Source of the DNA: Vicinamibacterales bacterium
GTDB taxonomy: Bacteria > Acidobacteriota > Vicinamibacteria > Vicinamibacterales > JAMQPK01
Length of the DNA: 64,000 bases
Reading direction: 5' to 3'
NCBI GenBank assembly: GCA_035937795.1
Contig: DASZHO010000062.1
Location: forward strand, 7,467-71,466
A program made the translations under genes and the position numbers. The notes beneath the pieces are model-generated. The model made no database searches. It was not told the origin of the DNA and saw nothing but the letters and a program-made list of their open reading frames with translations. This document shows positions 3 through 54,073 of this stretch, piece by piece; the stretch's first letter is position 1, and the number at the start of each line of letters is the position of its first letter.

Positions 3-500
3 TTGCGCCATCTGTGCGCCGCAAACCCCTCCATTCGCGGGTTTGGCATCGACATCTCGCCCGCGGCCATCGCGGATGGCGAGGAACTGGTGCGCAAGGC
101 GGGCCTGCAGGAGCGCATCCAGCTGGCCGTCGTGGACATCAACGCGCTGGGGAGCACACCGGCCGAACTGCAGGACATCGACGCCGCCACCGTGTTCTTC
201 GTCCTACATGAGATTCTGTATCAGGGCAAGGACGCGCTCTTACAGCTGTTGCGCAGTTACCGTACCCTTTTTCCCGGTGTTCCGCTGACAGTCTTTGAGG
301 TCGATAGGGCCACTCCGGACGCTATGCGCCGACGGCCCGGGATGTCTGTTCAGTACACCCTGCAACACGATCTGTCCCACCAGAAGCTGATCAGCAGGTC
401 GGCGTGGCACGCGCTCTTCCATGAGGCTGGCTTCACCGCCATCGAGGAACGCAACCTGAGCTTCGCCAGGACCGTCATCTTTACTGTAATGGGGGAGTGA
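3..500 (+). CDS. Class I SAM-dependent methyltransferase, C-terminal portion (5' end outside window)
   Basis: The ORF is open to the left window edge. 'GFGIDISPAAIADGEELVRKAGLQERIQLAVVDI' and 'ATVFFVLHEILY' resemble the motif II-IV region of Rossmann-fold methyltransferases. Its TGA (498-500) overlaps the GTG (497) of the next ORF. Confidence 0.55.
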   Translation: MRHLCAANPSIRGFGIDISPAAIADGEELVRKAGLQERIQLAVVDINALGSTPAELQDIDAATVFFVLHEILYQGKDALLQLLRSYRTLFPGVPLTVFEVDRATPDAMRRRPGMSVQYTLQHDLSHQKLISRSAWHALFHEAGFTAIEERNLSFARTVIFTVMGE

Positions 501-1402
501 GTTTGATGGCCCCATCGACCGCGCGTCTATCGCCTCTCACCGTGAAAGGGCCGGTGTTGGTTACCGGCGCCTCGTCGGGCATCGGGTTGGAGACCGCACT
601 CTATCTGGCTGCACAGGGGTATACGGTCTGCGCCACCATGCGGGATCTGAGCCGACGTGCTGCCTTGGATAGGGAGGCCAGGCGGCGGAATCTCTTGGTG
701 CAGGTCCAGGCCCTGGATGTGACCGACCCGCCCAGCATCGAGGCGGTGGTGCGCTCCCTGGTGGGTCGTTACGGCGGCATCTATGGCCTCGTGAATAACG
801 CCGGCTTCCAGCTTCAAGGCTACTTTGAAGACCTGACCGATGCCGAGATTCGCACTCTGTTCGAGGTGAATCTCTTCGGCACCATGGCCGTGGTGCGGGC
901 CGTGCTGCCCGGCATGCGCGCTGCCCGCCAGGGGCGGGTCGTGATCGTCTCCTCCGTCGGGGGACTGCTGGGCTCGGTTGCACTCAGTGCCTACTGCGCC
1001 TCCAAGCACGCCCTGGAGGGCTTCGGCGAGGGCCTCTCGTTGGAAGTCTGTGCGCTGGGGATCCAGGTCACGCTGGTGGAGCCTGCCATCGTGCAGACGG
1101 AGATCTGGCGCGGAAATAGGCGTGTGGCCCGGGGCGCGCTGGACCCAGCCAGCCCTTACTACGAGTGGTTTCACGCTGTGGAGCGGTTGACGGACCGGAT
1201 GGTCGCCACGGCTCCTACGACCTCCCTCGATGTGGCCCATGCTGTGCACCGGGCGCTCGCGGCGGGCCGGCCACGTCTGCGGTATCTGGTCGGGAGGCGG
1301 GCGGCCTTGTTGCTGATCCTGCGCCGCTACGTGCCCGCCGCCCTCTTCGAACGGATCTATTTTGGCGAGGTGATCCGCCGCGTAACTGGCACACGCGTTT
1401 GA
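497..1402 (+). CDS. Classical short-chain dehydrogenase/reductase (SDR)
   Basis: Motifs: 'VLVTGASSGIGLETALYLA' (TGxxxGxG), 'NNAG', 'YCASKHALEG' (YxxxK). The start is GTG 497 or the in-frame ATG 506. The 3' end overlaps the convergent gene by 46 nt. Confidence 0.85.
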   Translation: MSLMAPSTARLSPLTVKGPVLVTGASSGIGLETALYLAAQGYTVCATMRDLSRRAALDREARRRNLLVQVQALDVTDPPSIEAVVRSLVGRYGGIYGLVNNAGFQLQGYFEDLTDAEIRTLFEVNLFGTMAVVRAVLPGMRAARQGRVVIVSSVGGLLGSVALSAYCASKHALEGFGEGLSLEVCALGIQVTLVEPAIVQTEIWRGNRRVARGALDPASPYYEWFHAVERLTDRMVATAPTTSLDVAHAVHRALAAGRPRLRYLVGRRAALLLILRRYVPAALFERIYFGEVIRRVTGTRV

Positions 1403-3735
1403 CCCGCACCCCAACTGTCCGACTGACAAAAGAAAGATTCCAGGTAGTCGTTCAGGAACACTCCATTTGGATCCCACTCCTCGCGAAGCCTGACAAAATC
1501 ATCCCACCTCTCATACTGCCCCTTTATGTAATCTCGCTCCGCGCGAGTCTCTTTGCCCCAGTGAAAGCGATAATGAAACGGCCTCAGCAACTGATGTATC
1601 TGATCGAAGAGCGTGGCCGATCGAGGATACTGCCAGCACTCCAGCCAGACGACGTCGCGTCCATAGGCTGGGCTCAACCACAAATCGCTTCGAGCCGAAC
1701 TGCGAATGTGGATCGGCATCAGGGGAAACGTCCTGGTTGTCTGGAAATGCGTACGCAAGAGCCCGATGGCAGCGGGCGCCTGCTCATAGGGAAGGGCAAC
1801 CTCCATATCCCGGATTGTGTCTGGAGATCGGTCTGAGTCACCGAGGTCGCCGAAGGCGAGGACCCAGTCGCTGCGACCGATGCGAAGCGGATAGCAGGAT
1901 CCAACTGAGAATTTCGTAAAGAATCGTTGAATCGTGTTGCCCCTGAGGAGAAGCCAGGCAAACAATTTCAGGCCAAGCACCTTGAGGATCTGCCCGCCTC
2001 TGCTCATGCCCTTTGGCGCAGGCTTTCTACGTGCGATGCAGCTCACATCGTGCAGATTGTCGACATCCCGGTCTTTCAACCGATCGACAGAAAGAATTTC
2101 GATCTCATCTGTGATCGGAAAATAGAGCATGTCGGTGTAGAGACTGTTCCGGTTGATGTCGTCGAACGCGTCCAGCACGTCCTCTGCTTTCCTGACGGCG
2201 CTGCGCGCCTGCAGAGCAAACGCGGGCACACACCGCAATGTCACGGCCGAGATTATGCCGAGGACCCCGACGGAGACGACCACGCCATTAAACAAGTCAT
2301 GCGACCGGTCAATTTCCAGGACGCTTCCATCGGCCCTGACGATTCGCACCGACTCCACATAGTCACTGAGCGATCCATGGAAAATCGTGCCTCCATGAGT
2401 CGCAGTACTGATGGCGCCGGAGACTGTCTGAGCAGTAATCGACCCGCTTACGGGTAGCGCCAGCTTCAATCCTGCCAGGGTTTCATTCAGCTCACGGAGC
2501 GTCATCCCTGCCTCAACAGTCACAAGGGACCCGTCCACTTTCAGGAGCTTCTTATATCTGTCCAGAACCAGGCAGACGCCATCGGTCTCTGGTATGGGGC
2601 AAAGGGAGTGCAGAGAGCCGATGGCCTTGGCTTTAATGTTAGTGTTCGACGCCAGTTGAGCTATTTCAACGAGCTCTCGTTCCGAGGAAGGATGCACGAT
2701 CGCCAGAGGGCGAAACCGCAGGGGCCCATAGTTGTCCAGAGAAAATTGAGTTTTCGCCACGAGGCATTTCTGTTTCGCCCACAGTTCCGTCTTCAACATC
2801 CCTGTCGACAAGCTGACCTCAGGAGAGTATCCCAGAAGCGCAGCCGCCTTTGAGGATGGAAAGGCTTTTGTATTTTCGGACATCCGGATGAGAAACCTGG
2901 CTCCTCTGCGCACGTCATGGGTGCCAGGGAGGACATCTAGCAGCTTTGCAATAGTCCTGACGATCGGAGTCGGGATATGCCGCGCCGGCCGATCCAGCAT
3001 CCGGCTGTAGTGGGAGTAGAAGTCGTTGAGAGTGACGGTCTCATGTCCGATATTGAACACTTCGCCGCGCGCGTGGGGAGATTGCGCGGCCGACAGCAAT
3101 GCCTTCGCGACGTCACCGACGTAGACCACATCCATTACGCCGCGTCCGTCTCCAAGAATGACGGGCAAGCCTTTACGAATCAAGTCGAGCGGCATCAGCG
3201 TATAAGATTTCGTGTTTGGCCCATACACGCACGTGGGACGGAGGATAGTAACGTCGAGGCCATCTTCCCGCGCGATCTCCACCAGAGCCCTTTCCGACTG
3301 CAGTTTCGTCAGGGCATAAACTGCCATGTCCTGGTATTCGACGAGCTCTGCGTTTTCCGTATAATCTGAGTCGGTTCTTGCCGCGCTGTAGACTGCAACC
3401 GAGCTGATGTGGACGAAGCGTTGGCAGCCGTTTGCAGCAGCAGCTCGAGCCAGCCGGCGTGTTCCTTCGACATTCACCGCGTATGAATCTTTGTACGATC
3501 CGGTGATGAGTGCGGCGCAATGAAAGACGAACGTGGTGCCTCTCACCAGCTCGGCAAGGGCTGCATCGCTGGTGACGTCGCCCCATACAGCTCTACACCC
3601 GCGCTTCTCCCACCTCTCCGCCGTGTCGTTCTTCGAGCGGAAGAGGGCCTTCACCTCGTAAAGGTCCACCAGTTGCTCGAGCAACGCTTGGCCTATGCCG
3701 CCGCTTCCGCCGGTCACGCATACGGTCTCCTTCAT
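1357..3735 (-). CDS. Fusion protein: N-terminal extended-SDR (NAD-dependent epimerase/dehydratase-like) + C-terminal FAD-linked oxidase (FAD_binding_4 + ALO/D-arabinono-1,4-lactone-oxidase-type domain)
   Basis: N-terminal domain: 'VCVTGGSGGIGQALLEQL' Rossmann motif and 'YALTK' (YxxxK). C-terminal domain: 'AIGSLHSLCP', 'GAISTATHGG' (PCMH-type FAD binding) and 'YRFHWGKETRA...DPNGVFLNDYL' (ALO-type C-terminus). ATG at 3735 verified. Confidence 0.8.
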   Translation of the reverse strand: MKETVCVTGGSGGIGQALLEQLVDLYEVKALFRSKNDTAERWEKRGCRAVWGDVTSDAALAELVRGTTFVFHCAALITGSYKDSYAVNVEGTRRLARAAAANGCQRFVHISSVAVYSAARTDSDYTENAELVEYQDMAVYALTKLQSERALVEIAREDGLDVTILRPTCVYGPNTKSYTLMPLDLIRKGLPVILGDGRGVMDVVYVGDVAKALLSAAQSPHARGEVFNIGHETVTLNDFYSHYSRMLDRPARHIPTPIVRTIAKLLDVLPGTHDVRRGARFLIRMSENTKAFPSSKAAALLGYSPEVSLSTGMLKTELWAKQKCLVAKTQFSLDNYGPLRFRPLAIVHPSSERELVEIAQLASNTNIKAKAIGSLHSLCPIPETDGVCLVLDRYKKLLKVDGSLVTVEAGMTLRELNETLAGLKLALPVSGSITAQTVSGAISTATHGGTIFHGSLSDYVESVRIVRADGSVLEIDRSHDLFNGVVVSVGVLGIISAVTLRCVPAFALQARSAVRKAEDVLDAFDDINRNSLYTDMLYFPITDEIEILSVDRLKDRDVDNLHDVSCIARRKPAPKGMSRGGQILKVLGLKLFAWLLLRGNTIQRFFTKFSVGSCYPLRIGRSDWVLAFGDLGDSDRSPDTIRDMEVALPYEQAPAAIGLLRTHFQTTRTFPLMPIHIRSSARSDLWLSPAYGRDVVWLECWQYPRSATLFDQIHQLLRPFHYRFHWGKETRAERDYIKGQYERWDDFVRLREEWDPNGVFLNDYLESFFCQSDSWGAGQTRVPVTRRITSPK

Positions 3736-3760
3736 CGAGTCTGGAGCTGGGAATGAAATG

Positions 3761-6112
3761 TCATCGTGAAGTGTCGTTTCTACAAAAGAACGGTTCCAAA
3801 TAGCTGTTCAAGAACATGCCTGTCGGATCCCACTCTTCGCGGAGTCGGAGAAAATCATCCCACCTTTCATATTGCCGATTTATGTACTCCCGACCGGCGT
3901 GAGTTTCTTTTCCCCAGTGAAAACGATAGTGGAACGGTTCAAGTAGTTCGTGGATTTGTTGTTTGGAAAGGTTGTCAGAGCGGGGGTACAGCCAGAACTC
4001 CAGCCAGCAGACGTCGCGTTTGTACGTGGGACTCAACCACAGGCCGCTTCGAGAAGAACAGCGAATATGGATCGGCAACAGAGGATACTTCTGAGTCGTC
4101 AAGAAATGACTGCGAAGGAGGGCGATCGCTTTGTGAGCCTGCTCATACGGAATCGCAATCTCTATACCCTGGAGCAGAAGCGTCAGAGGAGATCGGTCCG
4201 ACGTCCCGACGTCACCGAAGGCGAGAACCCGATCGCTGCGGGCCGTGCGCGTTCGATAAGAGCGTCCAGCTGCACATTCAGTCAACCATCTGTGAATCGA
4301 ATTGTTGCCGAGGACAAGCCATACCAACGCTTTCAGCCCGAGTGTCCTGAGGCGCCGGGCGACTTTTGTATTGACGAGCGACGGCGGCCTTCTGGACGTC
4401 GCGGGCTGCTCGTTCGCCGGCGTGTCGCTGTCCTCGCTCTCTATTCTGTTAATCGCGAGTATTTCCATCTCATCCGTAACGGGGAAATAGAGCATATCGA
4501 TATAGAGATTGCGTCGGTTTATCTCATCGAACTCTTCAAGAACTTGCTGGGCTTTCGAAACGGAGCTGCGCGATCGCAGGAGAAACGAGGGAACGCACCG
4601 GAATGTCACCGTCGAAATGATGCCGAGGAGGCCAAGGGAAACAACGACGGCTTGGAACAGGTCCTGCGAGCGGTCAATCTCCAGAATACTTCCGTCGGCT
4701 CTGACTATTCTCAGAGACTCCACACAGTCGCTAATCGATCCGAAGTGAATGGACCCTCCGTGAGTCGCGGTGCTGATAGCCCCAGACACGGTCTGCGCGG
4801 TAATCGCTCCTAGTATCGGCAATGCTAAATTCAACTCTGCCAAGGTCTCGTTCAGGGTTCGAAGCTTCATACCTGCCTGGACTGTTACAAGGGATTCCTC
4901 AACTTTCAGCAGCTTGTCGTATCTGTCCAGAACGACGCAGATGCCTTCGGTCTCTGGTATGGGGCACAGGGAGTGCAAAGAGCCAATGGCTTTGGCTGTA
5001 ATGTTGTCGGTCAGGGCGATCCGGGTAATTTGCACCAGGTCGTCTTCTGCCAGAGGGTGCACGACAGCCAAAGGAGAGAAAGGTATAGGCCCAGGGCTGT
5101 AGGCGTCTACGGAATATTCGGTTCTAGGAATGAGATGTTCACGTTTCGCCCACAATTCGGTCTTCAGCATGCCGGCGAACAGGTTGACTTCAGGAGCGTA
5201 CCCCAGGAGGGTTCTGGCTTTTGTACATGGAAAGCGGTCGGCATTGTCAGACATCCGAATGAGGAAGCCGGCGGCTTGCCGCAGCGCTGGCAACGCTGTG
5301 CCTGGGATGAACCGGAGCAGTCGTAACAAGGCCCTCACGGGTGAGACGGGTAGATGTCGTGCAGGCCGGTTCAGCATTCGGCCGTAATGAGCGTAAAAGT
5401 CGTTGAGTGTGACCGTCTCATGACCGATGTTGAACACTTCCCCGTTGGCTTGCGGAGATCGCGCGGCCAGCAATAAGGCCCTGGCGACATCATCGACATA
5501 AACGACATCTAGGAGGCCGCGGCCATCTCCCACAATGACGGGCAAGCCCTTGCCAATCAGCTTGATCGGAATCAGCGTATACGCTTTGATGTTCGGCCCG
5601 TAGACACAGGTGGGCCGCAGAATCGTGTACTCGAGGCCATATTCTTGCGCCACCTCTTTCAGCGCTTGTTCTGACTGTAATTTGGTCAGGCTATAGGCCG
5701 CCATGCCGTCACGTTCACATAATTCTGCGTCCTCCACGTAGGCTGGCTGATTTGGCGCTCCGCTATACACAGCAACGGAACTGACATGGACGAAGCGTCG
5801 GCAGCCGTGTGTGGCGGCGAGTCGAGCTAAGCGGCGCGTCCCTTCCACATTGACGGGATACGCCTCCTCATACGACCCTTGCGTAATCGCCGCACAGTGA
5901 AAGACGAACTTGGCGCCCGTGACCAACTCTGAGAGTGCTTCTTCGTCTGCGACGTCGCCCCATACAGCCGCACACCCTGGTTGTATCCACTTGTCACTTA
6001 TTTCATTCGCTGTGCGGAAGAGGGCTTTTACTTCGTAAAGGCCGACCAGGCGCTGCAGCAAAGCCTGGCCTATGCCGCCGCTTCCACCGGTCAGGCATAC
6101 AGTCTCTCGCAC
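3761..6112 (-). CDS. Paralog of the preceding SDR + FAD/ALO-oxidase fusion (tandem duplicate)
   Basis: Collinear with 1357-3735 over its full length, by eye about 65-70% identical (e.g. 'MRETVCLTGGSGGIGQALLQRLVGLYEVKALFR' vs 'MKETVCVTGGSGGIGQALLEQLVDLYEVKALFR'). The same 'GSLHSLCPIPE', 'STATHGG' and 'YRFHWGKETHA' motifs are present. The start codon is GTG at 6112. Confidence 0.8.
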   Translation of the reverse strand: MRETVCLTGGSGGIGQALLQRLVGLYEVKALFRTANEISDKWIQPGCAAVWGDVADEEALSELVTGAKFVFHCAAITQGSYEEAYPVNVEGTRRLARLAATHGCRRFVHVSSVAVYSGAPNQPAYVEDAELCERDGMAAYSLTKLQSEQALKEVAQEYGLEYTILRPTCVYGPNIKAYTLIPIKLIGKGLPVIVGDGRGLLDVVYVDDVARALLLAARSPQANGEVFNIGHETVTLNDFYAHYGRMLNRPARHLPVSPVRALLRLLRFIPGTALPALRQAAGFLIRMSDNADRFPCTKARTLLGYAPEVNLFAGMLKTELWAKREHLIPRTEYSVDAYSPGPIPFSPLAVVHPLAEDDLVQITRIALTDNITAKAIGSLHSLCPIPETEGICVVLDRYDKLLKVEESLVTVQAGMKLRTLNETLAELNLALPILGAITAQTVSGAISTATHGGSIHFGSISDCVESLRIVRADGSILEIDRSQDLFQAVVVSLGLLGIISTVTFRCVPSFLLRSRSSVSKAQQVLEEFDEINRRNLYIDMLYFPVTDEMEILAINRIESEDSDTPANEQPATSRRPPSLVNTKVARRLRTLGLKALVWLVLGNNSIHRWLTECAAGRSYRTRTARSDRVLAFGDVGTSDRSPLTLLLQGIEIAIPYEQAHKAIALLRSHFLTTQKYPLLPIHIRCSSRSGLWLSPTYKRDVCWLEFWLYPRSDNLSKQQIHELLEPFHYRFHWGKETHAGREYINRQYERWDDFLRLREEWDPTGMFLNSYLEPFFCRNDTSR

Positions 6113-6118
6113 TCTCTG

Positions 6119-7057
6119 TTACGCCCTTTGGAGCCACAAGCTGCCACCAACGCCAAAGGTGGGAGGATCGATGCAGAGCGGCATCAGCTTTCGTATGGCG
6201 TCGGAGTGAAACTTCATCATGAAGTCATTCCAGAATCTGATGGGACACTGCGTGTTGTACTGAAGGAACGCGCGCAGGATGTAAGCCTCATTCCACGAAA
6301 TCCCGAGCTCGAACCACTCCTGGGGATACTCAAACGGGTAGGGGACGTCGTGAAAGTGGACGAGCACTCCAGGCGTCAGTCTCGGCATGAGCTCGAAGAG
6401 AATGTGGTTGACGTCGCTGCCGGCCTTCGATACGTGTGAGCAATCAATGAACAGAATGTCGTTCGCGGCAAGCTGGTCGACGATGCTCCGATCGAGCTGC
6501 TGGATCGGCTGTTCCACGATTGAGACGGAGTTGTAGTCCTCCTCTTTCAGCAGCTTGCGCAGCCGCGTGCTCTCGGGTTCGATGAACGTGAACTGGATAC
6601 CGCGGTTCATGAACCGTTCGTTGGTGTCCAGCATCACGGCCGAGGAGAACCCAGATCCGATCTCGATAATCCGACGCGGGCGGATCAGCCGAATCATGGA
6701 ATACAGGAAAAGGGCGTCAGCGCGTCCGTACCAATAATTGTCGAAGAAGTAGCGCATGCCGTTCCGCGGTGTTTCGGAGAATGGCTGCTCATCGTAAAAC
6801 GTCGCGAATTGCGTTAACAGCGTCAGTTGACCGGCCTCGTTCAACTCGACGCCCGGGAGGGTCCGCAACGATCGGTCAAAAATCCGCGGCGCGTCGCGCT
6901 CCAGTTCCTTGATGGACGGTACCGGAGAGTAATAATGCCCGTTTCTTACGCGCAGGATCCGCCACGTCGCCAGCTTGCGTCCCACGGCCAACCAGAATTC
7001 GCGTTTCGCGCGCGCGCGCGCCCACGAACGTCCGTCGTACCCGGAGTCATCTGCCAT
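6119..7057 (-). CDS. Putative SAM-dependent methyltransferase (Methyltransf_24/CmcI-like)
   Basis: 'RIIEIGSGFSSAVML' is a motif I-like ExGxGxG. 'ILFIDCSHVSKAGSDV' resembles the post-motif region of TylF/CmcI-type methyltransferases. ATG 7057 verified. The TAA is 6 nt before the next start. Confidence 0.5.
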   Translation of the reverse strand: MADDSGYDGRSWARARAKREFWLAVGRKLATWRILRVRNGHYYSPVPSIKELERDAPRIFDRSLRTLPGVELNEAGQLTLLTQFATFYDEQPFSETPRNGMRYFFDNYWYGRADALFLYSMIRLIRPRRIIEIGSGFSSAVMLDTNERFMNRGIQFTFIEPESTRLRKLLKEEDYNSVSIVEQPIQQLDRSIVDQLAANDILFIDCSHVSKAGSDVNHILFELMPRLTPGVLVHFHDVPYPFEYPQEWFELGISWNEAYILRAFLQYNTQCPIRFWNDFMMKFHSDAIRKLMPLCIDPPTFGVGGSLWLQRA

Positions 7058-7129: not shown

Positions 7130-10100
7130 CTACCGGTGTTGAGTCGAACGGGGTTGACCGTCTCTCAAGGACAGAAGTGAGAGCAGAAGAGACTTTCCTG
7201 TCCCCTCTGGCACAGATCCTGCCGTTGCGGTGTCGGAAACAGGGATCGCCTGCCCGCCCACGGAATTGACCATGGAACGCGCCAGCTCAGACAGACTCGG
7301 CCCTTTGATGAGCTGAAGAAGCGGGATGGCGACTCCGATTTCCTTTTCGACGCGGTTCTTCAGCTCAATCGCCATCAAGGAATCGATCCCCATGGTGACC
7401 AGTGGCTGGTCGAGGTCGATCTTGGACGCCGCAAGCCTCACCACGCCGGCGACGTGCTCCCGGAGGCGATCGGTCAGGATCTGAAGCCGCTCTGCGGGAC
7501 CCGCTGCCAGAAGCTGGGTGCGCGTCGGGTTCTGCGTATCCGCACGGACGGATATCGCGCCTTCAAGCCTGGAGAAGAAGGGCATCTCCGCCAGGACCGG
7601 ATGGGATGCTCGCCACACTTGCCAATCGACGCCCATCACCAAGACCTGAGATACGTCCGAAATCATCACCCGTCCGAGCGCTTCCACTCCTTGACGCAGA
7701 GAGAGACTCTCGATGCCCGCAATTCCGAGTCGTCCTCCACGGTCCGGCCGCGCGGCGAGTCCAACGTCCGACCATGGCCCCCAGTTGATGCTCACGGCGG
7801 GCAGGTTCCGGGCTCGCCGATAATGCGCGAGTGCATCGAGAAACTGGTTAGCGGCAGCGTAATTCGCCTGCCCCGCCGAGCCGAGCATCGATGCTGCGGA
7901 AGAGAAGAGCAGAAAGAAATCGAGAGGTGAGTCGAGACTCGCGCGGTGCAGGTTCCACGCCCCCTCGACCTTCGGTGCCATGACCCGGCGAAATCGCTCT
8001 GGCGTCTGCTGGAGCAGGGTGCCATCATCAAGTAATCCGGCCGCGTGCACAATGCCGCGCACCGGGGGCAGATCCCGCGCCCAGCGCACGAACGCGGCGT
8101 CCACAGAACCGGCGTCACCCACGTCGAATCGGTCGACCACAACCTGGGCGCCCGCGCGCTCCATAGCCTCGATCGCCTGACGAGCCTCCAGCGTCGGTTC
8201 GCTCCTCCCCACGAGGACAAGGCTTGTGGCACCCTTTTCGACCAGCCATCCACCTACAACAAGCCCAATGCCTCCAAGACCGCCGGTGAGGACGTAGGTG
8301 GAATCGTCTCGGATTCGGGCGGAAGCGTCCGTCGGAGGAGCCACCGTGACGCTCCGTGGATCCATATCGATCACGACCTTACCGATGTGGCGACTCCGCG
8401 CCATGTGATGGAGTGCCTCGGCCAGATCGTTCGCCGCGAAGACCTGCTTCGGAAGCGGCGCTAGATGCTTTTCCTCGAAGAGGCGCACCGCCTCCCGAAG
8501 GAGTCGACCGCAGTCTTCCGGCCGCTTTGCCGCCAGGCTGTTCAGGTCGACAAGGAAGAACGAACGGCTGTCCTCAAGGCACCGAAGGGGAAGCTGACCC
8601 CCTTCGAGAAGGTCGCGCTTGCCCAACTCTATGAACCGGCCTCCAGGGCGGAGGATTTCCAACCCGCGGGCGAACGCCTCTCCCGCGAGAGAGTTCACTA
8701 TCACGTCGACGCCCTTCCCCCCCGAGGCTTCCATCACCTCGTCGGCGAACGAGAGCGATCGCGAGTCCATCGCGCGGCGCACATCGAGACTCTCGAGGAG
8801 CCGGCGTTTTTCGTCGGTGCCGGCAGTCGCATAGATCTCGGCGCCCGTTTCCTGCGCCAGACGCACGCAGGCGAGCCCAACTGCGCCCGTGGCCGAGTGA
8901 ACGAGAACCCGCTCGTCTCTCCGCAGCCTGCCGAGGTGGTTCACCGCATAGTGTGCGGTGAGGAACGCGATGGGCAGCGTGGCGGCTTCCTCGAAATCAA
9001 GCCGCGCCGGTTTCGCGACAACGAGCCAGGCCGGGGTGCGGACCACTGAGCTCAGGCTCGGTCGAGCGAGCGCGACGACTTCATCGCCCACGGAGAACGA
9101 GGTCACCCCCTCGCCCAAGGCGGTGATCCTTCCCGCGCACTCGTGTCCGAGGACGAGGTCTCCATCGCTGGGCAGCAGACCCAGTGCAAGGAAGATGTCG
9201 CGGAAGTTCAGACCGGCGGCGACCACCTCGATTTCCACTTCGCCGGCGGCGGGTCGGCGGCGGGCGACTTGCCGAAAAGAAATGCCCGAAAGGTTCCCGG
9301 TCTCTGCCAGCTGGGCGCGAAACGGCATCGGCTTTAGGAGTTTCGTCGCCGCGCTATCCGCCCGCGTCAGGCGCGCCACGAATCGCCGGTCGTCGCGGAA
9401 AGCGACCTGCTGCTCGCGGTCACTGCGCCACAGCTCGTCTGCGAGTGCGCGCGCCTCGTTTTCGCTCGACTCTGCGCTCAAATCGATCGCGGTGCAGAAG
9501 AACTCCGGATGCTCCTGGACGATGGTTCGGGCGAGGCCCCATAGCGGCGCTCGAAATGGTGAGACTTCGTCGCTCTCGACAATGTATTGCACCCCGCGCG
9601 TCGTAAGCCACAGGCGGGTCGATTCATCGATGCCCCTCCGTACCAGAGCCTGCACGAGAAGCAGGGCGCTCTCCACTCCGAGCGCGGAAGCGTCGCTCGC
9701 GCCTTCAGCAACGTCGAGACTCCATAAATGGATGACGGAATCAAGCGCGATCCCTCTTCGTTTCAGCGCTCCGAGAAGCTCTGAGTAGTCCTGGCTGCGT
9801 GCTGGGTCGATTCGGCACAAGCCTGCCTCAGAGAGGTTCTCCGGGACGTGAAGCGCCGCACCCCGGGTAACGAGGATCGCCGTTTCCCCTCGGGCGGTTA
9901 TCAGTTCCGCCAGACGGGTACCAACTCCCGTCGAGTCGGCGAAGATCAGGAAGCCGCCCTCCCTCGTTTCCTTGACGGCGTCTGGCCGCGTCGAGTGTTG
10001 CTCCCACGTGAGGCTGTAGAACCGCTCCTTTTCAGGATCCGCGGACACGTCCAACGGCGCGAGACCTATTGCGCTCGCTTCCGCGACGAGCTCGTCCGCT

Positions 10101-13100
10101 TCGGTGAGCAAACGCACGTCTCCACAGACTCGGGAGCCTTCGTGCCTACACACAGCATGCGCCCAGAGAGCGCCCGAAGTCGCATCTTGCTTGTGAAGAC
10201 GGAAGCGGTCCATGGACACGGGCACGAGGGTTGCGCGGAAATCGGTGGACAGGGCTGTCGCGAGGACCTGCAAAGCGGAATCAAGAAGGGCAGGATGTAT
10301 CCGATAGCGCCTGGCGTCGGAAGGCGCCGGCCTCAGTCGGGCGATCGCTTCGCCGTCTCCTGTCCAGACCGATTCGATTCCCTGGAAGGAAGGGCCGTAG
10401 TCCAGGCGGAGGTCCGCCATACGCTGATAGTGATCCGCACCGGGCCTTTCGATGGAGCAGCGTGCTTGAATGGCGGCGAGGGAATCGGTGCTAACTCCCA
10501 CTTGCTCGTCTTCCGAAGCGGACACCCGAATCTGGCCCCGTGCGTGCCGGGAAAAACTCGGCGCCCCTTCGATCCCCGGTGCAGGGGTTTCACCAAACAC
10601 TTGCCACTCGAAGCGGGTAGGCACCTGCCGGGTCAGGGTCACTTGGATCTCGCGAGCCTCGCCGTCGGAAAGCACGAGCGCCTTTTCAAAGCGAACGTTC
10701 TCCAGAGCGATCGAAGCCGCATCACCCAGAGCCTCCCCAGCTGCCTCGAGCGCCATCTCGAGATAGACAGTGGCGGGGACCATGATTTCCCCGTGGACCC
10801 GATGGTCCTGCAAGAAGGGGAAGGCGTCCGTGCTGAGCGGGCGTTGCCAGAATTCGGTTGCGGGGTCCGCCGCTGACCGAGTGCGGTCGCCAAGTAAAGG
10901 ATTCTTCGCCCTGAGGCTCACTCGCTTCTTTCCCGAGGATTTCCCGCTCTCGTCGTCGAACCAAAAGCGCTCTCGCTGCCAGGGATAGCCGGGTAGCGGC
11001 ACGCATTCGGCGCCAGGTGGATAGAGCCGGCCCCACTCCACGGACCTTCCGAGTGCATAAAGGCTCGCGAGCGTTGAGAGCAGCGATCGGCGTTCAGGCT
11101 CATCACGCCGCAGCGAGCCGAGCACCATCCCGTCCCGCTCCAAGTGGAACAGGCACTGCTGGATAGCGGGCAACACGATCGGATGAGGGCTGACCTCGAG
11201 AAAGACGTCGATTCCGTCTTCGAGAAGCTTCTCGATGACGCCAGCGAACAGTACCGGCTCGCGGAGGTTGCGCACCCAATATTCCGCACTAAGGTCGCGA
11301 CCCGACGCGATTGCCCCGGTGACAGTGGAATACAAAGGAGCTGTCGTCCTCCGCGGAACGATGCCTTCCAGCATGGAAAGCAGGTCGTCACGCAGGACTT
11401 CCATCTGAGGGCTGTGCGACGCGTAGTCCACCTTGATGCGGCGGCAGAAAACTCCGTCGTGCTCGAGGCCGGTGAGGACCTCCTCCAGAGCGTCGGGGTC
11501 ACCCGATAGCACCGTCGAGGTTGGACTGTTGCTGACCGCGATCGAGAGACGGTCCTGGTATCCCGTGAGGACTTCGGTCGATCTCGCCAAAGAAAGTTCG
11601 ACCATCGCCATCGCTCCGCGTCCGCTCGTTCGCCTTGCGAGGCGGCTCCGACGGCAGATGATGCGCGCTGCGTCTCCCAGAGAAAGGGCCCCGGCGACGT
11701 GCGCGGCCGCCACCTCGCCCATGCTTTGACCCACCACGGCGTCGGGCTTTACTCCCCAGGATCGCCAGAGCTCGGCGAGAGCGACCTGGAGGGCGAAGAT
11801 CGCGGGCTGTATCACGTCAACCTCTTCGAGCCGCGATTTCTCCTTTGAGGCTTGGATCTCGGCGGTCAACGACCAATCGACGTGCTCCGCGAAGGCAGCC
11901 TCGCATCTTTCGATCGCGTCGGCGAAGACCGGCTCGCGCGCGCTGAGTTCCCTTCCCATTCCCAGCCATTGCGAGCCCTGGCCGGGAAACACGAAGGCTA
12001 CTTTTCGCCGCCTGTTCGTGAGGCGCCGGCCCACCTCGACCTCACGAGGGTTGTCCCGCTCCAGAAACGCCACGAGCTTTGAGAGCATCTCCGAGCGAGT
12101 CGCCGCCACTGCCGCGAGCCGAAAATCGTGATGGCTTCGTCGAACGGCAGCCGTCGCACACAAATCGACCAGCGACACCGTGTTCTTTCCATCGGCCAGG
12201 TGTTCTGCGTAGGCACGAGCCAGACTTGAAAGCGCTTCTCCGCTTCGGGCAGACATAGGAAGAACACAGGCGTCGTCTGCCGACGCCCGTCCGCTCGGGG
12301 TTCTTGGGGAAAGTTCTTCGAGGACCAAGTGTGCGTTCGTGCCTCCGAAGCCGAATGAGCTCACGCCCCCTCGGGCCGGCTTGGACTCCGCTGGCCACGG
12401 CTCGAGACGGGTGACGACCCGGAGCGGCAGGACGTCGAATCGAATATATGGATTGGGCTTCTCAAAATGAAGGCTCGGAGGCAACTGCCGCCGGTCGAGA
12501 GACAGAGCGAGTTTGATGAGACCGGCGACGCCGGCCGCGGCTTCCAGATGTCCGAAGTTCGTCTTGGCCGAACCCACGGCACAGCGCGCTTCCCGGGAAC
12601 GGCCGGCGGCGAGCACTGCCCCAAGGGCATTCAGCTCGATCGGATCTCCAAGCGCCGTTCCGGTACCGTGCGCTTCTACGTATTGGATGTCCGATGGACC
12701 GATACCGGCATTCGAGAGAGCCTCGCGGACGAGCGCTTCCTGGGAAAGACCGTTGGGTGCCGTGAGCCCGTTGGTCCGCCCGTCCTGATTGACCGAGCCC
12801 CCCCGGATGACTGCGTAGATTCGATCTCCATCCGATAACGCGCTCTCGAGGGGCTTGAGGAAGACGACACCCGCTCCTTCCCCGCGCACGTAGCCGTTGG
12901 CGCGAGCATCGAAAGCTTTGCAGCGGCCGTCGGGCGCCATCGCGTGCAGCTTTGAGAATCCGATTGTGACGGCGGGAGAGAGCATCACATTGACGCCCCC
13001 GGCGAGAGCGAGCGTGGACTCGCCGCGCCGCAGACTCTGACAGGCGTAATAGGCGGCGACGAGAGACGAGGAGCATGCCGTGTCGATGACGACGCTGGGG

Positions 13101-13600
13101 CCGCGGAAATCGAAGAGATACGAGATCCGGTTTGCGGCCATGCTGAGCGCGCTCCCGGTGTTGACGTATCCGTCGCGGATTTCGTCGAAGCGGGCAAGCT
13201 GCCGGCTTCCGTAGTCGTAGCTCGATATTCCCACGAAGACGCCTACCGGCTGCCCGGCCAGCTTCTCGGCCGGAATCCCGGCATCCTCCATCGCTTCCCA
13301 GGCGACTTCCATGAGGAGCCGCTGCTGAGGGTCTATGTACGCCGCTTCGCGCGGAGAGATACCGAAGAACGCGGCGTCAAACCGATCCACCTCTGTCAGG
13401 AAACCGCCCCAACGAGTGTTCATCTTTCCCGGCACAGCGGGATCGTCGTCGTGCAGCTCATCCAGATTCCAGCGTTCGGGAGGCACTTCGCGAATCGCGT
13501 CGACGCCGTCAGCAAGCAATCGCCAGAATGCGTCAGGACCGCTGGCCCCGGGAAACCGGCACCCGACGCCGACGATGGCGACCGGCTCGAACCTGTCCAT
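7130..13600 (-). CDS. Fully reducing type I polyketide synthase, KS-AT-DH-ER-KR-ACP (mycocerosic-acid-synthase-like architecture)
   Basis: KS: 'VAIVGVGCRFPG', 'DTACSSSL', 'EAHGTGT', 'NFGHLEAAAG'. AT: 'FVFPGQGSQW', 'GQSMGE' (11717-11731), 'YASH' (11414-11425). DH: 'HRVHGEIMVP' (HxxxGxxxxP). ER: 'LVHSATGAVGLACVRLAQETGAEIYATAG'. KR: 'YVLTGGLGGIGLVVGGWL', 'YAAANQFLD'. ACP: 'MGIDSLMAIELKN'. The ORF track begins at TTG 13606. The first ATG is 13600, 2 nt after the upstream TGA. Confidence 0.95.
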   Translation of the reverse strand: MDRFEPVAIVGVGCRFPGASGPDAFWRLLADGVDAIREVPPERWNLDELHDDDPAVPGKMNTRWGGFLTEVDRFDAAFFGISPREAAYIDPQQRLLMEVAWEAMEDAGIPAEKLAGQPVGVFVGISSYDYGSRQLARFDEIRDGYVNTGSALSMAANRISYLFDFRGPSVVIDTACSSSLVAAYYACQSLRRGESTLALAGGVNVMLSPAVTIGFSKLHAMAPDGRCKAFDARANGYVRGEGAGVVFLKPLESALSDGDRIYAVIRGGSVNQDGRTNGLTAPNGLSQEALVREALSNAGIGPSDIQYVEAHGTGTALGDPIELNALGAVLAAGRSREARCAVGSAKTNFGHLEAAAGVAGLIKLALSLDRRQLPPSLHFEKPNPYIRFDVLPLRVVTRLEPWPAESKPARGGVSSFGFGGTNAHLVLEELSPRTPSGRASADDACVLPMSARSGEALSSLARAYAEHLADGKNTVSLVDLCATAAVRRSHHDFRLAAVAATRSEMLSKLVAFLERDNPREVEVGRRLTNRRRKVAFVFPGQGSQWLGMGRELSAREPVFADAIERCEAAFAEHVDWSLTAEIQASKEKSRLEEVDVIQPAIFALQVALAELWRSWGVKPDAVVGQSMGEVAAAHVAGALSLGDAARIICRRSRLARRTSGRGAMAMVELSLARSTEVLTGYQDRLSIAVSNSPTSTVLSGDPDALEEVLTGLEHDGVFCRRIKVDYASHSPQMEVLRDDLLSMLEGIVPRRTTAPLYSTVTGAIASGRDLSAEYWVRNLREPVLFAGVIEKLLEDGIDVFLEVSPHPIVLPAIQQCLFHLERDGMVLGSLRRDEPERRSLLSTLASLYALGRSVEWGRLYPPGAECVPLPGYPWQRERFWFDDESGKSSGKKRVSLRAKNPLLGDRTRSAADPATEFWQRPLSTDAFPFLQDHRVHGEIMVPATVYLEMALEAAGEALGDAASIALENVRFEKALVLSDGEAREIQVTLTRQVPTRFEWQVFGETPAPGIEGAPSFSRHARGQIRVSASEDEQVGVSTDSLAAIQARCSIERPGADHYQRMADLRLDYGPSFQGIESVWTGDGEAIARLRPAPSDARRYRIHPALLDSALQVLATALSTDFRATLVPVSMDRFRLHKQDATSGALWAHAVCRHEGSRVCGDVRLLTEADELVAEASAIGLAPLDVSADPEKERFYSLTWEQHSTRPDAVKETREGGFLIFADSTGVGTRLAELITARGETAILVTRGAALHVPENLSEAGLCRIDPARSQDYSELLGALKRRGIALDSVIHLWSLDVAEGASDASALGVESALLLVQALVRRGIDESTRLWLTTRGVQYIVESDEVSPFRAPLWGLARTIVQEHPEFFCTAIDLSAESSENEARALADELWRSDREQQVAFRDDRRFVARLTRADSAATKLLKPMPFRAQLAETGNLSGISFRQVARRRPAAGEVEIEVVAAGLNFRDIFLALGLLPSDGDLVLGHECAGRITALGEGVTSFSVGDEVVALARPSLSSVVRTPAWLVVAKPARLDFEEAATLPIAFLTAHYAVNHLGRLRRDERVLVHSATGAVGLACVRLAQETGAEIYATAGTDEKRRLLESLDVRRAMDSRSLSFADEVMEASGGKGVDVIVNSLAGEAFARGLEILRPGGRFIELGKRDLLEGGQLPLRCLEDSRSFFLVDLNSLAAKRPEDCGRLLREAVRLFEEKHLAPLPKQVFAANDLAEALHHMARSRHIGKVVIDMDPRSVTVAPPTDASARIRDDSTYVLTGGLGGIGLVVGGWLVEKGATSLVLVGRSEPTLEARQAIEAMERAGAQVVVDRFDVGDAGSVDAAFVRWARDLPPVRGIVHAAGLLDDGTLLQQTPERFRRVMAPKVEGAWNLHRASLDSPLDFFLLFSSAASMLGSAGQANYAAANQFLDALAHYRRARNLPAVSINWGPWSDVGLAARPDRGGRLGIAGIESLSLRQGVEALGRVMISDVSQVLVMGVDWQVWRASHPVLAEMPFFSRLEGAISVRADTQNPTRTQLLAAGPAERLQILTDRLREHVAGVVRLAASKIDLDQPLVTMGIDSLMAIELKNRVEKEIGVAIPLLQLIKGPSLSELARSMVNSVGGQAIPVSDTATAGSVPEGTGKSLLLSLLSLRDGQPRSTQHR

Positions 13601-13602
13601 GA

Positions 13603-15711: not shown

Positions 15712-15713
15712 TC

Positions 15714-16577
15714 TCACCCCGTTACCTGGGGCGCGTCGAGGAGGCCGCGCCGCTCTCTCAAGAAATTGAGGATGTTGTTCAAGACGAGCTCGGGATGCTC
15801 CAGGCTGCTGAAGTGCTTGAGCTTGGCCCCGGGAACGATTGTTGACGAGCTCGCCGGCAGCCGCTCGCTCAGTTCCCGATGGGCCTCGAGAAAGACCGAG
15901 TTCGACTCGCAGATCAATAATGTTGGATGCTCGATTTTCGAAAGGCTGTCGAGCCCCATATTGCCCTCGGCTTCTCGTCCCTCCCACATTGGCCTCAAGA
16001 TGTCGAGCACGCGGAAGACGATCTCCTCATCCCGGAGCCTTCCCTGGGCGGGACCGTAGAGAATTGGAATCTCGATAAGCCGCCGCAGCAAATATTCCAG
16101 GTCGCAGCGATTCTCCTCGGGGATCGGTCGCCCCGACAGCGTTTCGATTGTCTCGGTCACGTAGGCCCAGCCGTCCCAGTCGCGACGGCGGTACACGGAG
16201 GCGAGCGGCGCGAGGAGGGCACCTTCCACGAGGACCAGCTCGGAGACGCGCTCCGGATTCAGCAGGGCAAAGTGCAGGACGATGTCAGCGCCCCAGGAAT
16301 GACCGACAAACGCTGCCTTCTCGATGCCGAGGCCATCCAGAATGGCGCGAAGGTCCTGGACCATGTCGCCGGTCGCATAGCCGGCTGGCAGTGCGTCGCT
16401 GCGTCCGTGCCCCCGCAGGTCGTACGTCAAAACACGGTATTCGCGCTGGAGCTCCGGCACCATTGTGAGGTGCCACGCGGCGAGATTTCCCCCGAGGCCG
16501 TGAACGAGAACGAGATCGGGTCCTTGCCCCGATACCCAGTAGTGAAACTCCAGGTTGTTAGCTTCGATTTTCGGCAC
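15714..16577 (-). CDS. Alpha/beta-fold hydrolase (possible thioesterase/release or editing enzyme)
   Basis: 'LVLVHGLGGNLAAW' (oxyanion region) and the 'FVGHSWGAD' GxSxG nucleophile elbow. The start is GTG at 16577. Confidence 0.8.
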   Translation of the reverse strand: MPKIEANNLEFHYWVSGQGPDLVLVHGLGGNLAAWHLTMVPELQREYRVLTYDLRGHGRSDALPAGYATGDMVQDLRAILDGLGIEKAAFVGHSWGADIVLHFALLNPERVSELVLVEGALLAPLASVYRRRDWDGWAYVTETIETLSGRPIPEENRCDLEYLLRRLIEIPILYGPAQGRLRDEEIVFRVLDILRPMWEGREAEGNMGLDSLSKIEHPTLLICESNSVFLEAHRELSERLPASSSTIVPGAKLKHFSSLEHPELVLNNILNFLRERRGLLDAPQVTG

Positions 16578-18586: not shown

Positions 18587-18606
18587 GGATCGAATTGAAA
18601 GTACGC

Positions 18607-19527: not shown

Positions 19528-19559
19528 TGTGGACCTCCGTTACCGCACTGTGCCATGGG

Positions 19560-21677: not shown

Positions 21678-21694
21678 GTCCCTCTCCACCCCCG

Positions 21695-23968: not shown

Positions 23969-24015
23969 AGGTAACCTGCTCCCGATTCTTACGCTCATTG
24001 CATGGAACACTGACG

Positions 24016-27928: not shown

Positions 27929-27940
27929 CGTTCGACTCTC

Positions 27941-46991: not shown

Positions 46992-47104
46992 GACGAATCT
47001 CCTTCGATTGGTTTGACGGTGCGCGCATGCGCCAGAAAAAACGCGTGTATCCTCCGATGCGCTAGCGCGAGTGTCAAGCGATAAACGACGACGGAATCGA
47101 TCCT

Positions 47105-54045: not shown

Positions 54046-54073
54046 CTGTTCTACTCCTGCGTGTGCCCGCTTC

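Follow-up and report, generated by a model that had tools for sequence, protein, structure and literature searches.

Tandem fusions of an extended SDR with an ALO-type flavin oxidase in an acidobacterial gene cluster and their possible role in glycolipid sugar epimerisation

Two adjacent genes of a Vicinamibacterales bacterium (Acidobacteriota), here named FusA and FusB, each encode an extended SDR that is fused to a FAD_binding_4 + ALO oxidase, an architecture that is real, rare and without a characterised member. We tentatively propose that both proteins are bifunctional redox enzymes of glycolipid tailoring, which bring about a net sugar epimerisation. The C-terminal VAO-fold, ALO-type half would use O2 to turn one hydroxyl of a sugar residue into the carbonyl, the sugar most likely being bound to the lipid by then, and the N-terminal NADPH-type SDR half would reduce this carbonyl from the opposite face, giving an irreversible epimerisation driven by O2 and NADPH. 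The order of these steps and the stereochemical outcome are those that we infer. The chemical logic would be that of DprE1/DprE2, carried out by other family members and within one polypeptide. In this mycobacterial pair, the decaprenylphosphoryl-ribose 2'-epimerase, the flavoprotein DprE1 oxidises a hydroxyl of a lipid-linked sugar, and the SDR DprE2 then uses NAD(P)H to turn the resulting ketone into the epimer. FusB and then FusA would be co-transcribed after the genes for a fatty acyl-AMP ligase (FAAL), a PKS and a methyltransferase, and the two may act on different residues or positions. All coordinates refer to the window, the stretch of 64,000 nucleotides (64 kb) that was analysed, in which the fusion genes are arranged as follows.

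1357..3735, minus strand: FusA, 792-aa extended-SDR + FAD_binding_4 + ALO fusion (ORF, Pfam, AF2 model, ortholog)
2761..3735, minus strand: FusA N-terminal extended SDR domain, residues 1-325 (Pfam Epimerase 137 bits, invariants of 38 homologs, nearest structure)
2311..2709, minus strand: FusA FAD_binding_4 domain, residues 343-475, with H376 and G431 (Pfam, alignments)
1435..2244, minus strand: FusA ALO cap domain, residues 498-767, with E645, H676-I-R678, W697-L-E699 and R723-F-H-W-G-K728 (Pfam, alignments)
3761..6112, minus strand: FusB, 783-aa paralog with the architecture of FusA (ORF, BLASTP, Pfam)
5129..6112, minus strand: FusB extended SDR domain, residues 1-328 (Pfam Epimerase 130 bits)
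3794..5074, minus strand: FusB oxidase half, FAD_binding_4 (347-479) and ALO (502-773) (Pfam)

Both open reading frames had been predicted at exactly these positions; they lie on the minus strand, are intact, start with ATG (FusA) and GTG (FusB) and are separated by 25 bp. A frameshift or stop that would split the halves into separate genes was looked for, and none is present inside either frame. The two proteins are close paralogs as predicted, although BLASTP puts them slightly under the 65-70% identity estimated by eye, with 502 of 781 positions identical (64%), 79% positives and E = 0. The predicted order of an N-terminal extended SDR and a C-terminal FAD_binding_4 + ALO oxidase holds for both, as the same three Pfam domains are found in each: Epimerase at residues 5-230 (130-137 bits), PF01565 FAD_binding_4 (86-97 bits) and PF04030 ALO (118-127 bits), the latter two above their cut-offs. 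The motifs GSLHS (373-377), STATHGG (443-449) and FHWGKET (724-730), on which that assignment had been based, are there, and likewise TGGSGGIG and Y140xxxK144. FusA gives an AF2 model with a pLDDT of 88.7 and a pTM of 0.86 and has its closest ortholog in P0002 (74%), and orthologs of FusB are found in L124 (70.9%) and as P0017 (65.5%).

An assembly artefact is ruled out by about 77 full-length proteins of like architecture from independent genomes and metagenomes, which share the conserved linker GMLKTELW ... F341-x-P343. These are about 77 full-length fusion clusters among 5.8 billion, and about 13 fusion representatives are found among 1.84 billion. Scans of genome and metagenome contigs, keyed on generic motifs (GAISTATHG; TGGSGGIGQ / VFHCAA), yielded at least one full-length fusion (L005) and at least two stand-alone oxidases (L006, L007). 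The literature search found no paper on an SDR + FAD_binding_4 + ALO fusion architecture. The architecture search called for in the original prediction returned a rare arrangement without functional assignment and not a common one. The fusions come from Acidobacteriota and Nostocales. Since the fusion is kept across phyla, the two steps are most likely linked, the product of an alcohol oxidase being the substrate of a reductase. Acidobacterial relatives that seemed to carry the oxidase only were considered as evidence for split genes and rejected, since P0075 (L123) is a fragmented copy among transposases (Epimerase piece of 131 aa, FAD piece of 470 aa and ALO piece of 99 aa).

The N-terminal half is an extended SDR, predicted to be of the NADP type and to use NADPH. 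It matches Epimerase, 3Beta_HSD and NAD_binding_10 in Pfam with no adh_short match, it folds into a two-lobed model of 325 residues, and T8GGSGGIG15 (TGxxGxxG) and the catalytic residues S111/S112 and Y140xxxK144 are invariant in 38 homologs. NDP-sugar 4-epimerases and 4,6-dehydratases with tightly bound NAD+ contact the adenine ribose of this cofactor through an acidic residue that closes beta-2. At this position the fusions have F32-R33, which is invariant in 38 of them and aligns with the Arg of Gox2253. An Arg after beta-2 indicates NADP(H) preference in SDRs, and Gox2253 prefers NADPH. Gox2253 (3wj7) is also nearest to the SDR half by sequence (E 1e-21) and by structure (E 1e-22, TM 0.78), with 26% identity; this likeness and F32-R33 together make a reductase more plausible than an epimerase or dehydratase with bound NAD+. 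HpnA (118/100 bits, threshold 367.65) and OleD (94/77 bits, threshold 580) score far lower than their models demand, and none of the Gox2253-, HpnA- and OleD-type SDRs is fused to a flavoprotein, unlike FusA and FusB. Overall the neighbours are mixed, comprising NDP-sugar epimerases and decarboxylases, cinnamoyl-CoA reductases, OleD, HpnA and sterol enzymes, a mix that fits more than one class of substrate, and the fold search run with the SDR half by itself did not tell sugar from lipid substrates. Among the structural neighbours the decarboxylase EvdS6, UDP-glucuronate 4-epimerase and the oxidoreductase/decarboxylase Pcryo_0617, together with a UDP-glucose dehydrogenase encoded in the window, would fit a sugar target for which the SDR half is a decarboxylase, a dehydratase or an epimerase-reductase (UXS/EvdS6/GMER-like) and converts a uronic-acid or keto-sugar residue to a pentose, a deoxy sugar or one that is epimerised twice. 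This is improbable, since all matches stay far under the family cut-offs, a C4-oxidising SDR would need no fused flavin oxidase, and the invariant Arg33 favours exchangeable NADP(H) over tightly bound NAD+.

The oxidase half belongs to the FAD_binding_4 + ALO subgroup of the VAO/PCMH family (fold matches with a target-normalised TM of 0.70-0.85). By its alignments it forms a separate clade that is closer to alditol oxidase and galactonolactone dehydrogenase than to DprE1. Alditol oxidase (AldO, 2vfr; actinobacterial AldO 8ot8) and galactono-1,4-lactone dehydrogenase/aldonolactone oxidases (8qmy, 7sml) are the top matches in sequence (E 6e-34, 1e-30, 8e-18) and in fold (E 4e-31 to 1e-26). They have in common with the fusions the VAO fold with FAD_binding_4 and ALO cap, the AldO His aligned with H376, the THG motif, the substrate-strand Arg and the C-terminal HWGK; however, identity is only 22-27%, and FusA and FusB are SDR-fused and lie in glycolipid/PKS clusters rather than in free-sugar contexts. 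E645, H376, H447, R678 and R723xHWGK728 are invariant in 38 diverse fusions, whereby R678 and R723-x-H725-W-G-K728 are (near-)invariant in 38 sequences and common to generic oxidases. H376 aligns with the His of the alditol oxidase motif 'GSGHS', which is the site of covalent FAD attachment in that enzyme; the oxidase half is predicted to bind FAD covalently via H376 as putative link, and galactonolactone dehydrogenase has Leu in this column. G431 may represent the oxidase-type glycine; it falls in the A113G gatekeeper column, a weak test because alditol oxidase itself has Ala there in the HMMER alignment. A helical hairpin at 579-610 was considered as a membrane anchor and rejected, as neither hydrophobicity nor strong amphipathicity is seen (muH 0.24 in the helix 579-597; the Kyte-Doolittle maximum falls on a core beta-strand) and generic oxidases possess the region as well.

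The substrate site departs from that of the known enzymes. The Glu-x-Arg pair (AldO 'CEIRT'; generic 'IEIRF', 'VEVRF') is replaced by H676-I-R678, with Arg or Gln at the first position in some relatives, the Y-I-G of generic oxidases is W-L-E in the fusions, and there is an additional loop after 'RSD'. In NCBIfam, bact_FAD_ox and sugar 1,4-lactone oxidase match best, with 218.5/216.1 bits for TIGR01679 (cut-off 292.25) and 186.6/205 bits for TIGR01678 (cut-off 396.8). These matches, database names such as 'L-gulonolactone oxidase' and the full-length homologs that stand alone among unrelated genes in L003, L004 and L085 (neither a GT nor a PKS lies closer than 10 kb), which also count against the glycolipid reading, would suit a free sugar, polyol or aldonolactone as substrate. 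The reductase would then yield an aldonate or polyol and the oxidase would act on the lactone or alditol in an ascorbate/erythorbate-like route, the link to the cluster being incidental or one of head-group supply. We consider this very unlikely, given that both scores fall below the family cut-offs, that the Glu-x-Arg of all aligned alditol/aldonolactone oxidases has become His/Arg-x-Arg and the Y-I-G W-L-E, and that the fusions recur in GT/PKS clusters. Should the epimerisation mechanism fail, a correctly delimited ALO-type flavoprotein subfamily with its own active-site signature would still be left.

The analogy to DprE1/DprE2 that had been drawn at the outset does not extend to homology. 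Against the DprE1 equivalog NF053785 (cut-off 500) the two oxidase halves score 64.9 and 66.3 bits in partial alignments. In the fold search DprE1 is matched significantly (E 6e-25), but identity in the fold alignments is 15-18%, and DprE1 binds FAD non-covalently and is not known to carry a His at the position of H376. DprE2 is a classical SDR of about 250 aa, whereas the SDR half is extended and has no adh_short match, and DprE1 and DprE2 are separate proteins, whereas FusA and FusB are each one polypeptide. The substrate of DprE1 is a ribofuranose linked to polyprenyl phosphate; genes for polyprenyl-phosphate sugars were not seen in the 64-kb window. The flanking classical SDRs were rejected as DprE2 equivalents, as they give generic SDR matches only, with no DprE2 model among the top matches of the gene at 497-1402.

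The surroundings of the fusion genes in the window are the following.

497..1402, plus strand: classical SDR (adh_short), convergent with FusA, with a 46 bp overlap at the FusA 3' end
6119..7057, minus strand: Methyltransf_24 methyltransferase, 312 aa, 6 bp upstream of FusB
7130..13606, minus strand: type I PKS, KS-AT-DH-ER-KR-ACP, without release domain (from its domains)
13603..15987, minus strand: fatty acyl-AMP ligase + ACP loading protein, true start probably downstream of 15987
17327..29620, minus strand: glycosylation/tailoring block with four GT1, FkbM and TylF methyltransferases, a conserved 812-aa unknown protein, a PD40 protein and a phosphodiesterase
29899..43363, minus strand: PUFA-synthase/heterocyst-glycolipid-synthase-like genes (KS-AT-DH-PPTase; KR-DH; ER-KS-AT-ACP)
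52651-54114: UDP-glucose dehydrogenase

This content may well be that of a glycolipid pathway, in which a long-chain lipid or polyketide aglycone is decorated by several glycosyltransferases and methyltransferases. An NDP-sugar epimerase, dehydratase or aminotransferase is not found in the 64-kb window. Much of the neighbourhood is conserved: the Methyltransf_24 gene accompanies fusion pairs in L122, L123 and L124 (70-81%), a 74% ortholog of the type I PKS adjoins the fusion pair in L124, and orthologs of the glycosylation/tailoring block (50-78%) flank the fusions in L086 and L119. Classical SDRs also lie beside the fusions in Nostoc loci and are fused to the FusA/FusB-type SDR clade in P0170/P0210/P0098. 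Neither the methyltransferase at 6119-7057 nor the 812-aa protein has a relative in NCBIfam or the PDB.

The window PKS, like the Nostoc PKS modules, ends in an ACP without TE, and the SDR half has matches to NAD_binding_4 (65 bits), to the thioester reductase TIGR01746 (65/63 bits, threshold 213.35) and to the structures of cinnamoyl-CoA reductases, so that it could free the ACP-bound acyl chain as aldehyde or alcohol for glycosylation and leave the oxidase to tune the oxidation state. This is the least probable of the alternatives: the window's cluster contains an alpha/beta-hydrolase, the PKS of L121 has a Transferase-family domain of its own at the end, the orthologous Kovacikia cluster has retained the oxidase along with the TubC_N-docked protein but shows no extended SDR within 10 kb, and forming an alcohol only to re-oxidise it would be futile. 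A more serious, though still rather unlikely, alternative keeps the oxidise-then-process chemistry and moves it to a secondary hydroxyl of the polyketide or lipid aglycone, for example as carbinol inversion before O-methylation by Methyltransf_24 or to set keto-ol/diol states as in heterocyst glycolipids. PKS genes adjoin the fusions in the window, L001, L002, L121 and L124, FAAL, PKS, Methyltransf_24, FusB and FusA form a tight operon with co-conserved methyltransferase, the SDR matches include the lipid-acting OleD (94 bits), SdmB and NSDHL, and the top structure Gox2253 reduces aliphatic aldehydes. The spinosyn enzyme SpnJ, which is probably gulonolactone-oxidase-like and may act on a polyketide alcohol, carries no weight as evidence here. 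Against an aglycone target, the fusions in L086 and L119 are surrounded by GT1s and sugar O-methyltransferases and have no PKS closer than 10 kb, and ALO-clade members of known substrate act on carbohydrates or polyols.

Two further arrangements bear on the target. P0130, of which seven sequence variants occur across many contigs, is a GT28 domain fused to an oxidase of the FusA/FusB clade (564 bits). Kovacikia (L006) and Cyanobacteria J06635_1 (L007) have clusters orthologous to those of Nostoc (flanking genes 57-63%, oxidase 59%), in which a stand-alone oxidase and a DegT/EryC1 aminotransferase occur where Nostocales carry the fused SDR; in L006 the genes follow one another as DegT - GT28 - oxidase - methyltransferase, and no other enzyme able to make a keto-sugar is found in these two clusters. 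Alternatively, this DegT could use an NDP-keto-sugar from elsewhere in the genome. The GT28 fusion and the exchange of SDR for DegT favour a sugar target and argue against the aglycone. The original prediction had allowed for a sugar or some hydroxyl of the lipid product as target, of which the sugar residue is now the more likely; its oxidation-reduction epimerisation gains indirect support from both arrangements, and the catalytic residues of both halves are intact, while the DprE1/DprE2 homology falls away. In aminoglycoside pathways (GenD2-GenS2-GenN, NeoQ-NeoB) oxidation at the glycoside level is followed by transamination. The L006/L007 variant would resemble these systems in setting a carbonyl on an attached sugar for a PLP aminotransferase (and a methyltransferase), but the aminoglycoside oxidoreductases are of the GMC or Gfo/Idh/MocA and not of the ALO type, and in FusA and FusB it is the fused SDR that would consume the carbonyl. 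Glycosyltransferases occur within 10 kb in 8 of the 13 fusion contexts on which all co-occurrence figures rest, and these contexts represent three unrelated cluster types: acidobacterial with GT1, Nostocales with cis-AT PKS and GT28, and trans-AT PKS with GT32.

With epimerisation of an attached sugar as the preferred reading, a broader proposal is possible, if more doubtful: the fusions might constitute a hitherto undescribed class of single-polypeptide oxidase-reductase epimerases that act after transfer on the lipid-bound glycoside and pass the keto-sugar directly between sites, with an evolutionarily portable oxidase module that pairs, depending on the lineage, with an SDR (for an epimer), a DegT aminotransferase (for an amino sugar) or a glycosyltransferase, and with a conserved tandem pair inverting two centres of an oligosaccharide glycolipid of Acidobacteriota. 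If the mechanism holds, sugars would be epimerised after transfer by a second route of independent evolutionary origin, next to the drug target DprE1/DprE2 as the example so far. It would be contained in one protein of soil Acidobacteriota and Nostocales and would explain sugar diversification in glycolipid clusters without NDP-sugar tailoring genes. It would also provide a modular oxidase for keto handles on glycosides, useful in glycodiversification biocatalysis, and a functional anchor for the large acidobacterial glycolipid cluster with its PUFA-synthase-like and PKS genes. The data agree with the suggestion that the duplication reflects two substrates or positions: the pair is kept as two orthogroups in another genome, and the fixed differences between FusA and FusB concentrate around the oxidase pocket.

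The original prediction had placed two adjacent genes for fusion proteins of about 785 aa at 1357-6112, and both open reading frames were found there:

1357..3735, minus strand, FusA: ORF of 792 aa with Epimerase (extended SDR), FAD_binding_4 and ALO domains by Pfam
3761..6112, minus strand, FusB: ORF of 783 aa with Epimerase (extended SDR), FAD_binding_4 and ALO domains by Pfam

All three domains score far over the Pfam gathering thresholds in both proteins, which align over their full length (E = 0) with 64% of positions identical and 79% similar. Neither ORF contains a stop or frameshift between the SDR and oxidase halves, and the linker between them (GMLKTELW, F341, P343; FusA numbering throughout) is conserved among the homologs. 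Among 5.8 billion protein clusters, a word-indexed search yielded about 77 three-domain proteins of full length (at least 700 aa), plus fragments; the few that bear names belong to Bryobacterales/Bryobacteraceae and Vicinamibacterales (Acidobacteriota) and to Nostocales (Nostoc minutum NIES-26, CENA369, HT-58-2). To judge by the closest of these named homologs and by its GC content of 63%, the window probably comes from a Bryobacterales acidobacterium. A profile search run exhaustively over 1.84 billion representatives (50% identity) gave about 13 full-length fusion representatives with 375-1228 bits, below which, after a score gap, ordinary oxidases of 430-450 aa follow at about 300 bits. The homologs carry generic database names ('L-gulonolactone oxidase', 'NAD-dependent epimerase/dehydratase'), and no description of an SDR-oxidase fusion was found in the literature searched. 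The architecture is thus rare and functionally unassigned, and varies on kinds of enzyme that are already known.

In the SDR half the catalytic elements TGxxGxxG, S111/S112 and Y140xxxK144 are all invariant, and so is the Phe-Arg pair following beta-2. In SDRs, use of NADP(H) is usually marked by an Arg after beta-2 where others have an acidic residue, and Gox2253 (3wj7), the nearest solved structure in sequence as well as in fold, likewise has an Arg there. This residue speaks for the SDR half being a reductase whose NADPH is exchangeable, and against an epimerase or dehydratase whose NAD+ stays bound. Its low-score neighbours are mixed (HpnA, OleD, SdmB/NSDHL, UDP-sugar 4-epimerases, the EvdS6 decarboxylase, cinnamoyl-CoA reductases) and do not settle the substrate class; that the SDR performs a different chemistry on the keto-sugar is improbable. 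As a homologue of DprE2, the mycobacterial reductase paired with DprE1, the SDR half was ruled out, since DprE2 is a classical SDR and the SDR half has no adh_short match in Pfam.

By sequence, the oxidase half is closest to the alditol oxidases 8ot8 (6e-34) and 2vfr (1e-30), followed by L-galactonolactone dehydrogenase (8e-18) and, far behind, DprE1 (1.7e-11). The AlphaFold model is confident (pLDDT 88.7, pTM 0.86) and ranks GalDH (4e-31) before AldO (4e-29) and DprE1 (6e-25), the latter with 15-18% identity in the fold comparison. None of the curated NCBIfam cut-offs is reached, with 218 bits for bact_FAD_ox (cut-off 292), 187-205 bits for sugar lactone oxidase (397) and 65 bits for DprE1 (500). 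The invariant H376 of the GSLHS motif shares its column with the His of 'GSGHS' in AldO, which is the covalent FAD attachment site, whereas galactonolactone dehydrogenase has a Leu there. G431, likewise invariant, matches the column of the GalDH substitution A113G (8qnc vs 8qmy), which reportedly converts the dehydrogenase into an oxidase; because AldO itself has an Ala there in the same alignment, G431 is only suggestive of oxidase activity. Generic alditol/aldonolactone oxidases have Glu-x-Arg (IEIRF, VEVRF; CEIRT in AldO) and Y-I-G, whereas the fusions have His-x-Arg (IHIRS/C) and W-L-E at these places and carry an inserted loop following 'RSD'. The oxidase half is thus a distinct clade of ALO-type flavoproteins with its own active-site signature, for which covalent FAD, oxidase activity with O2 and a substrate other than free alditols and lactones are predicted. 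Given the differing signature, a role in free sugar or lactone metabolism is very unlikely.

FusB and FusA close a series of closely spaced genes that all run in one direction, in the order FAAL-ACP, PKS, Methyltransf_24, FusB, FusA. Here FAAL-ACP and PKS overlap by 4 bp, and the following gaps measure 72 bp (PKS to Methyltransf_24), 6 bp (Methyltransf_24 to FusB) and 25 bp (FusB to FusA); a convergent classical SDR gene overlaps the FusA 3' end by 46 bp. The 64-kb window holds a large lipid-glycoside cluster, to which this series belongs:

Genes of the lipid-glycoside cluster, all on the minus strand
PUFA-synthase/heterocyst-glycolipid-like genes: ER-KS-AT-ACP; KR-DH; KS-AT-DH with fused PPTase
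Phosphodiesterase; four GT1 glycosyltransferases
PD40 protein; conserved 812-aa protein
Methyltransferases: TylF, FkbM and two more
Alpha/beta-hydrolase
FAAL-ACP; fully reducing PKS module
Methyltransf_24, FusB, FusA

Farther off lie genes for a UDP-glucose dehydrogenase, a barrel protein of the outer membrane, a GT2, a YdjC-like protein and an oxidoreductase of the Gfo/Idh/MocA family. The 64 kb encode neither an NDP-sugar epimerase nor a 4,6-dehydratase nor an aminotransferase. The fusion genes (1357-6112) have GC contents of 0.566 and 0.552 and GC3 values of 0.66 and 0.62, and all other cluster genes (7130-47123) lie above both (GC 0.58-0.67, GC3 0.69-0.79); the genes may have been acquired from a donor of lower GC, or may follow another codon regime.

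Thirteen homolog contexts, each with a full-length fusion, were read. Glycosyltransferases are the most constant neighbours (8/13), followed by PKSs (5/13). The acidobacterial loci L086 and L119 have GT1s (65-78%), TylF (73-74%), the 812-aa protein (55-56%) and the PD40 protein in common with the window. L124 shows the order PKS (74% to that of the window), MFS, FusB ortholog (70.9%), FusA ortholog (74%) and Methyltransf_24 (70%), and L122 has two fusions with Methyltransf_24, an aldo-keto reductase and a GMC oxidoreductase between them. Three Nostocales loci (L001, L002, L005) encode cis-AT PKS modules, a 620-aa protein docked through TubC_N, a classical SDR, the fusion with a GT28 on either side, and MFS. 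At L121 a trans-AT PKS and two trans-ATs are followed by a fusion of 38% identity, whose gene overlaps the AT stop codon, and then by a GT32; L120 has GT32 and GT25 genes near the fusion, and at L003, L004 and L085 the fusions are isolated amid unrelated genes. An aglycone hydroxyl as the target, with which the PKS neighbours would be compatible, is unlikely, and reductive chain release is highly improbable.

Some of these loci show further peculiarities. The last PKS module of L121 (1-10004) ends in KR-ACP-Transferase (PF02458, BAHD-type), an unusual release domain, and an HMG-CoA-synthase beta-branching cassette lies downstream. L123 (1-12588) is a decayed copy of the acidobacterial cluster, with the fusion gene in three pieces, Methyltransf_24 in two, and a DDE transposase, an rve integrase and a PIN gene near the broken fusion. 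An MFS transporter-sulfotransferase fusion is encoded immediately upstream of the SDR-oxidase fusion gene in L086 (7861-9978), and an APS kinase gene adjoins the fusion gene in L122 (11390-11974); therefore, some acidobacterial glycolipids of these clusters may be sulfated.

Both halves also occur with other partners. The 898-aa protein P0130, present in seven sequence variants on many contigs, joins GT28 to FAD_binding_4 and ALO, and its oxidase half bears the fusion-family active-site signature. P0170, P0210 and P0098 (about 625 aa) join an extended SDR of the fusion-protein clade to a classical SDR, and both the window and Nostoc also have a classical SDR gene adjoining the fusions. Kovacikia (L006, 630-20826) and Cyanobacteria bacterium J06635_1 (L007, 26-7788) have clusters orthologous to those of Nostoc, with identities to L001 of 59% (TubC_N protein), 63% (classical SDR), 57-59% (GT28), 57% (MFS) and 59% (oxidase). 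Their oxidases stand alone without an SDR domain, and no extended SDR is encoded within 10 kb of them. Both loci run GT28, UDP-galactopyranose mutase, GT28, DegT/EryC1 aminotransferase, GT28 and oxidase, followed in L006 by a methyltransferase, an MFS transporter and a DevBCA-like (HlyD/MacB/ABC) exporter. This gene content suggests that the variant makes a glycolipid with amino sugar and galactofuranose that is exported. Enzymes of the DegT family aminate keto-sugars or keto-cyclitols, and no other keto-group-forming enzyme is encoded at either locus. The simplest reading is therefore that the oxidase clade puts a carbonyl on a sugar and that a lineage-specific partner sets its fate. In Kovacikia this carbonyl would be aminated, and in Nostocales and Acidobacteriota it would be reduced by the fused SDR; as reduction of the ketone is productive only if the other epimer is the product, the fusions would achieve a net epimerisation. 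Epimerisation of a sugar hydroxyl in the glycolipid after glycosylation is the most likely function, though its probability is put at slightly less than even. The proposed reading as DprE1/DprE2 in one polypeptide is correct as an analogy in chemical logic, which comparative genomics now supports, but as a statement of family membership it does not hold.

In a neighbour-joining tree FusA groups with the homolog P0002 and FusB with P0017, and L124 carries an ortholog of FusA and one of FusB, arranged as in the window. Therefore, the duplication is old and maintained, not recent. Forty positions distinguish the A-type (2 sequences) from the B-type proteins (3 sequences) and are invariant inside each type, with 7 in 325 residues of the SDR, 9 in 155 of the FAD-binding domain and 23 in 275 of the ALO cap. 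Such differences flank G431 (S430L, S432A), E645 (D643G, V646I), R678 (S679C) and W697-x-E699 (V696C, C700F, Q702L), which suggests, from this small sample of 2 vs 3 sequences, that FusA and FusB differ in what the oxidase half binds. The maintained pair and its differences around the oxidase active-site residues fit the earlier idea that the duplication serves two substrates or positions.

Elsewhere in the cluster, the PfaC-like protein at 29899-34749 (KS, AT/CLF-like region, DH) ends in a 4'-phosphopantetheinyl transferase domain (ACPS, residues 1508-1614), which is thus part of the synthase polypeptide. The proteins at 21695-24133 (812 aa) and 43521-47123 (1200 aa) have no match in Pfam, NCBIfam or PDB; the former is kept at 55-64% in the acidobacterial clusters L086, L119 and L123 and therefore probably belongs to the pathway. 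The FAAL ORF (13603-15987), in which the AMP-binding domain starts at residue 128, overlaps the alpha/beta-hydrolase gene (15714-16577) by 274 bp, and the GT1 ORFs 25194-26792 and 26516-27928 overlap by 277 bp, with homologs of one aligning over about 435 aa only; the mechanically assigned starts of the FAAL and of one GT1 are probably too far upstream.
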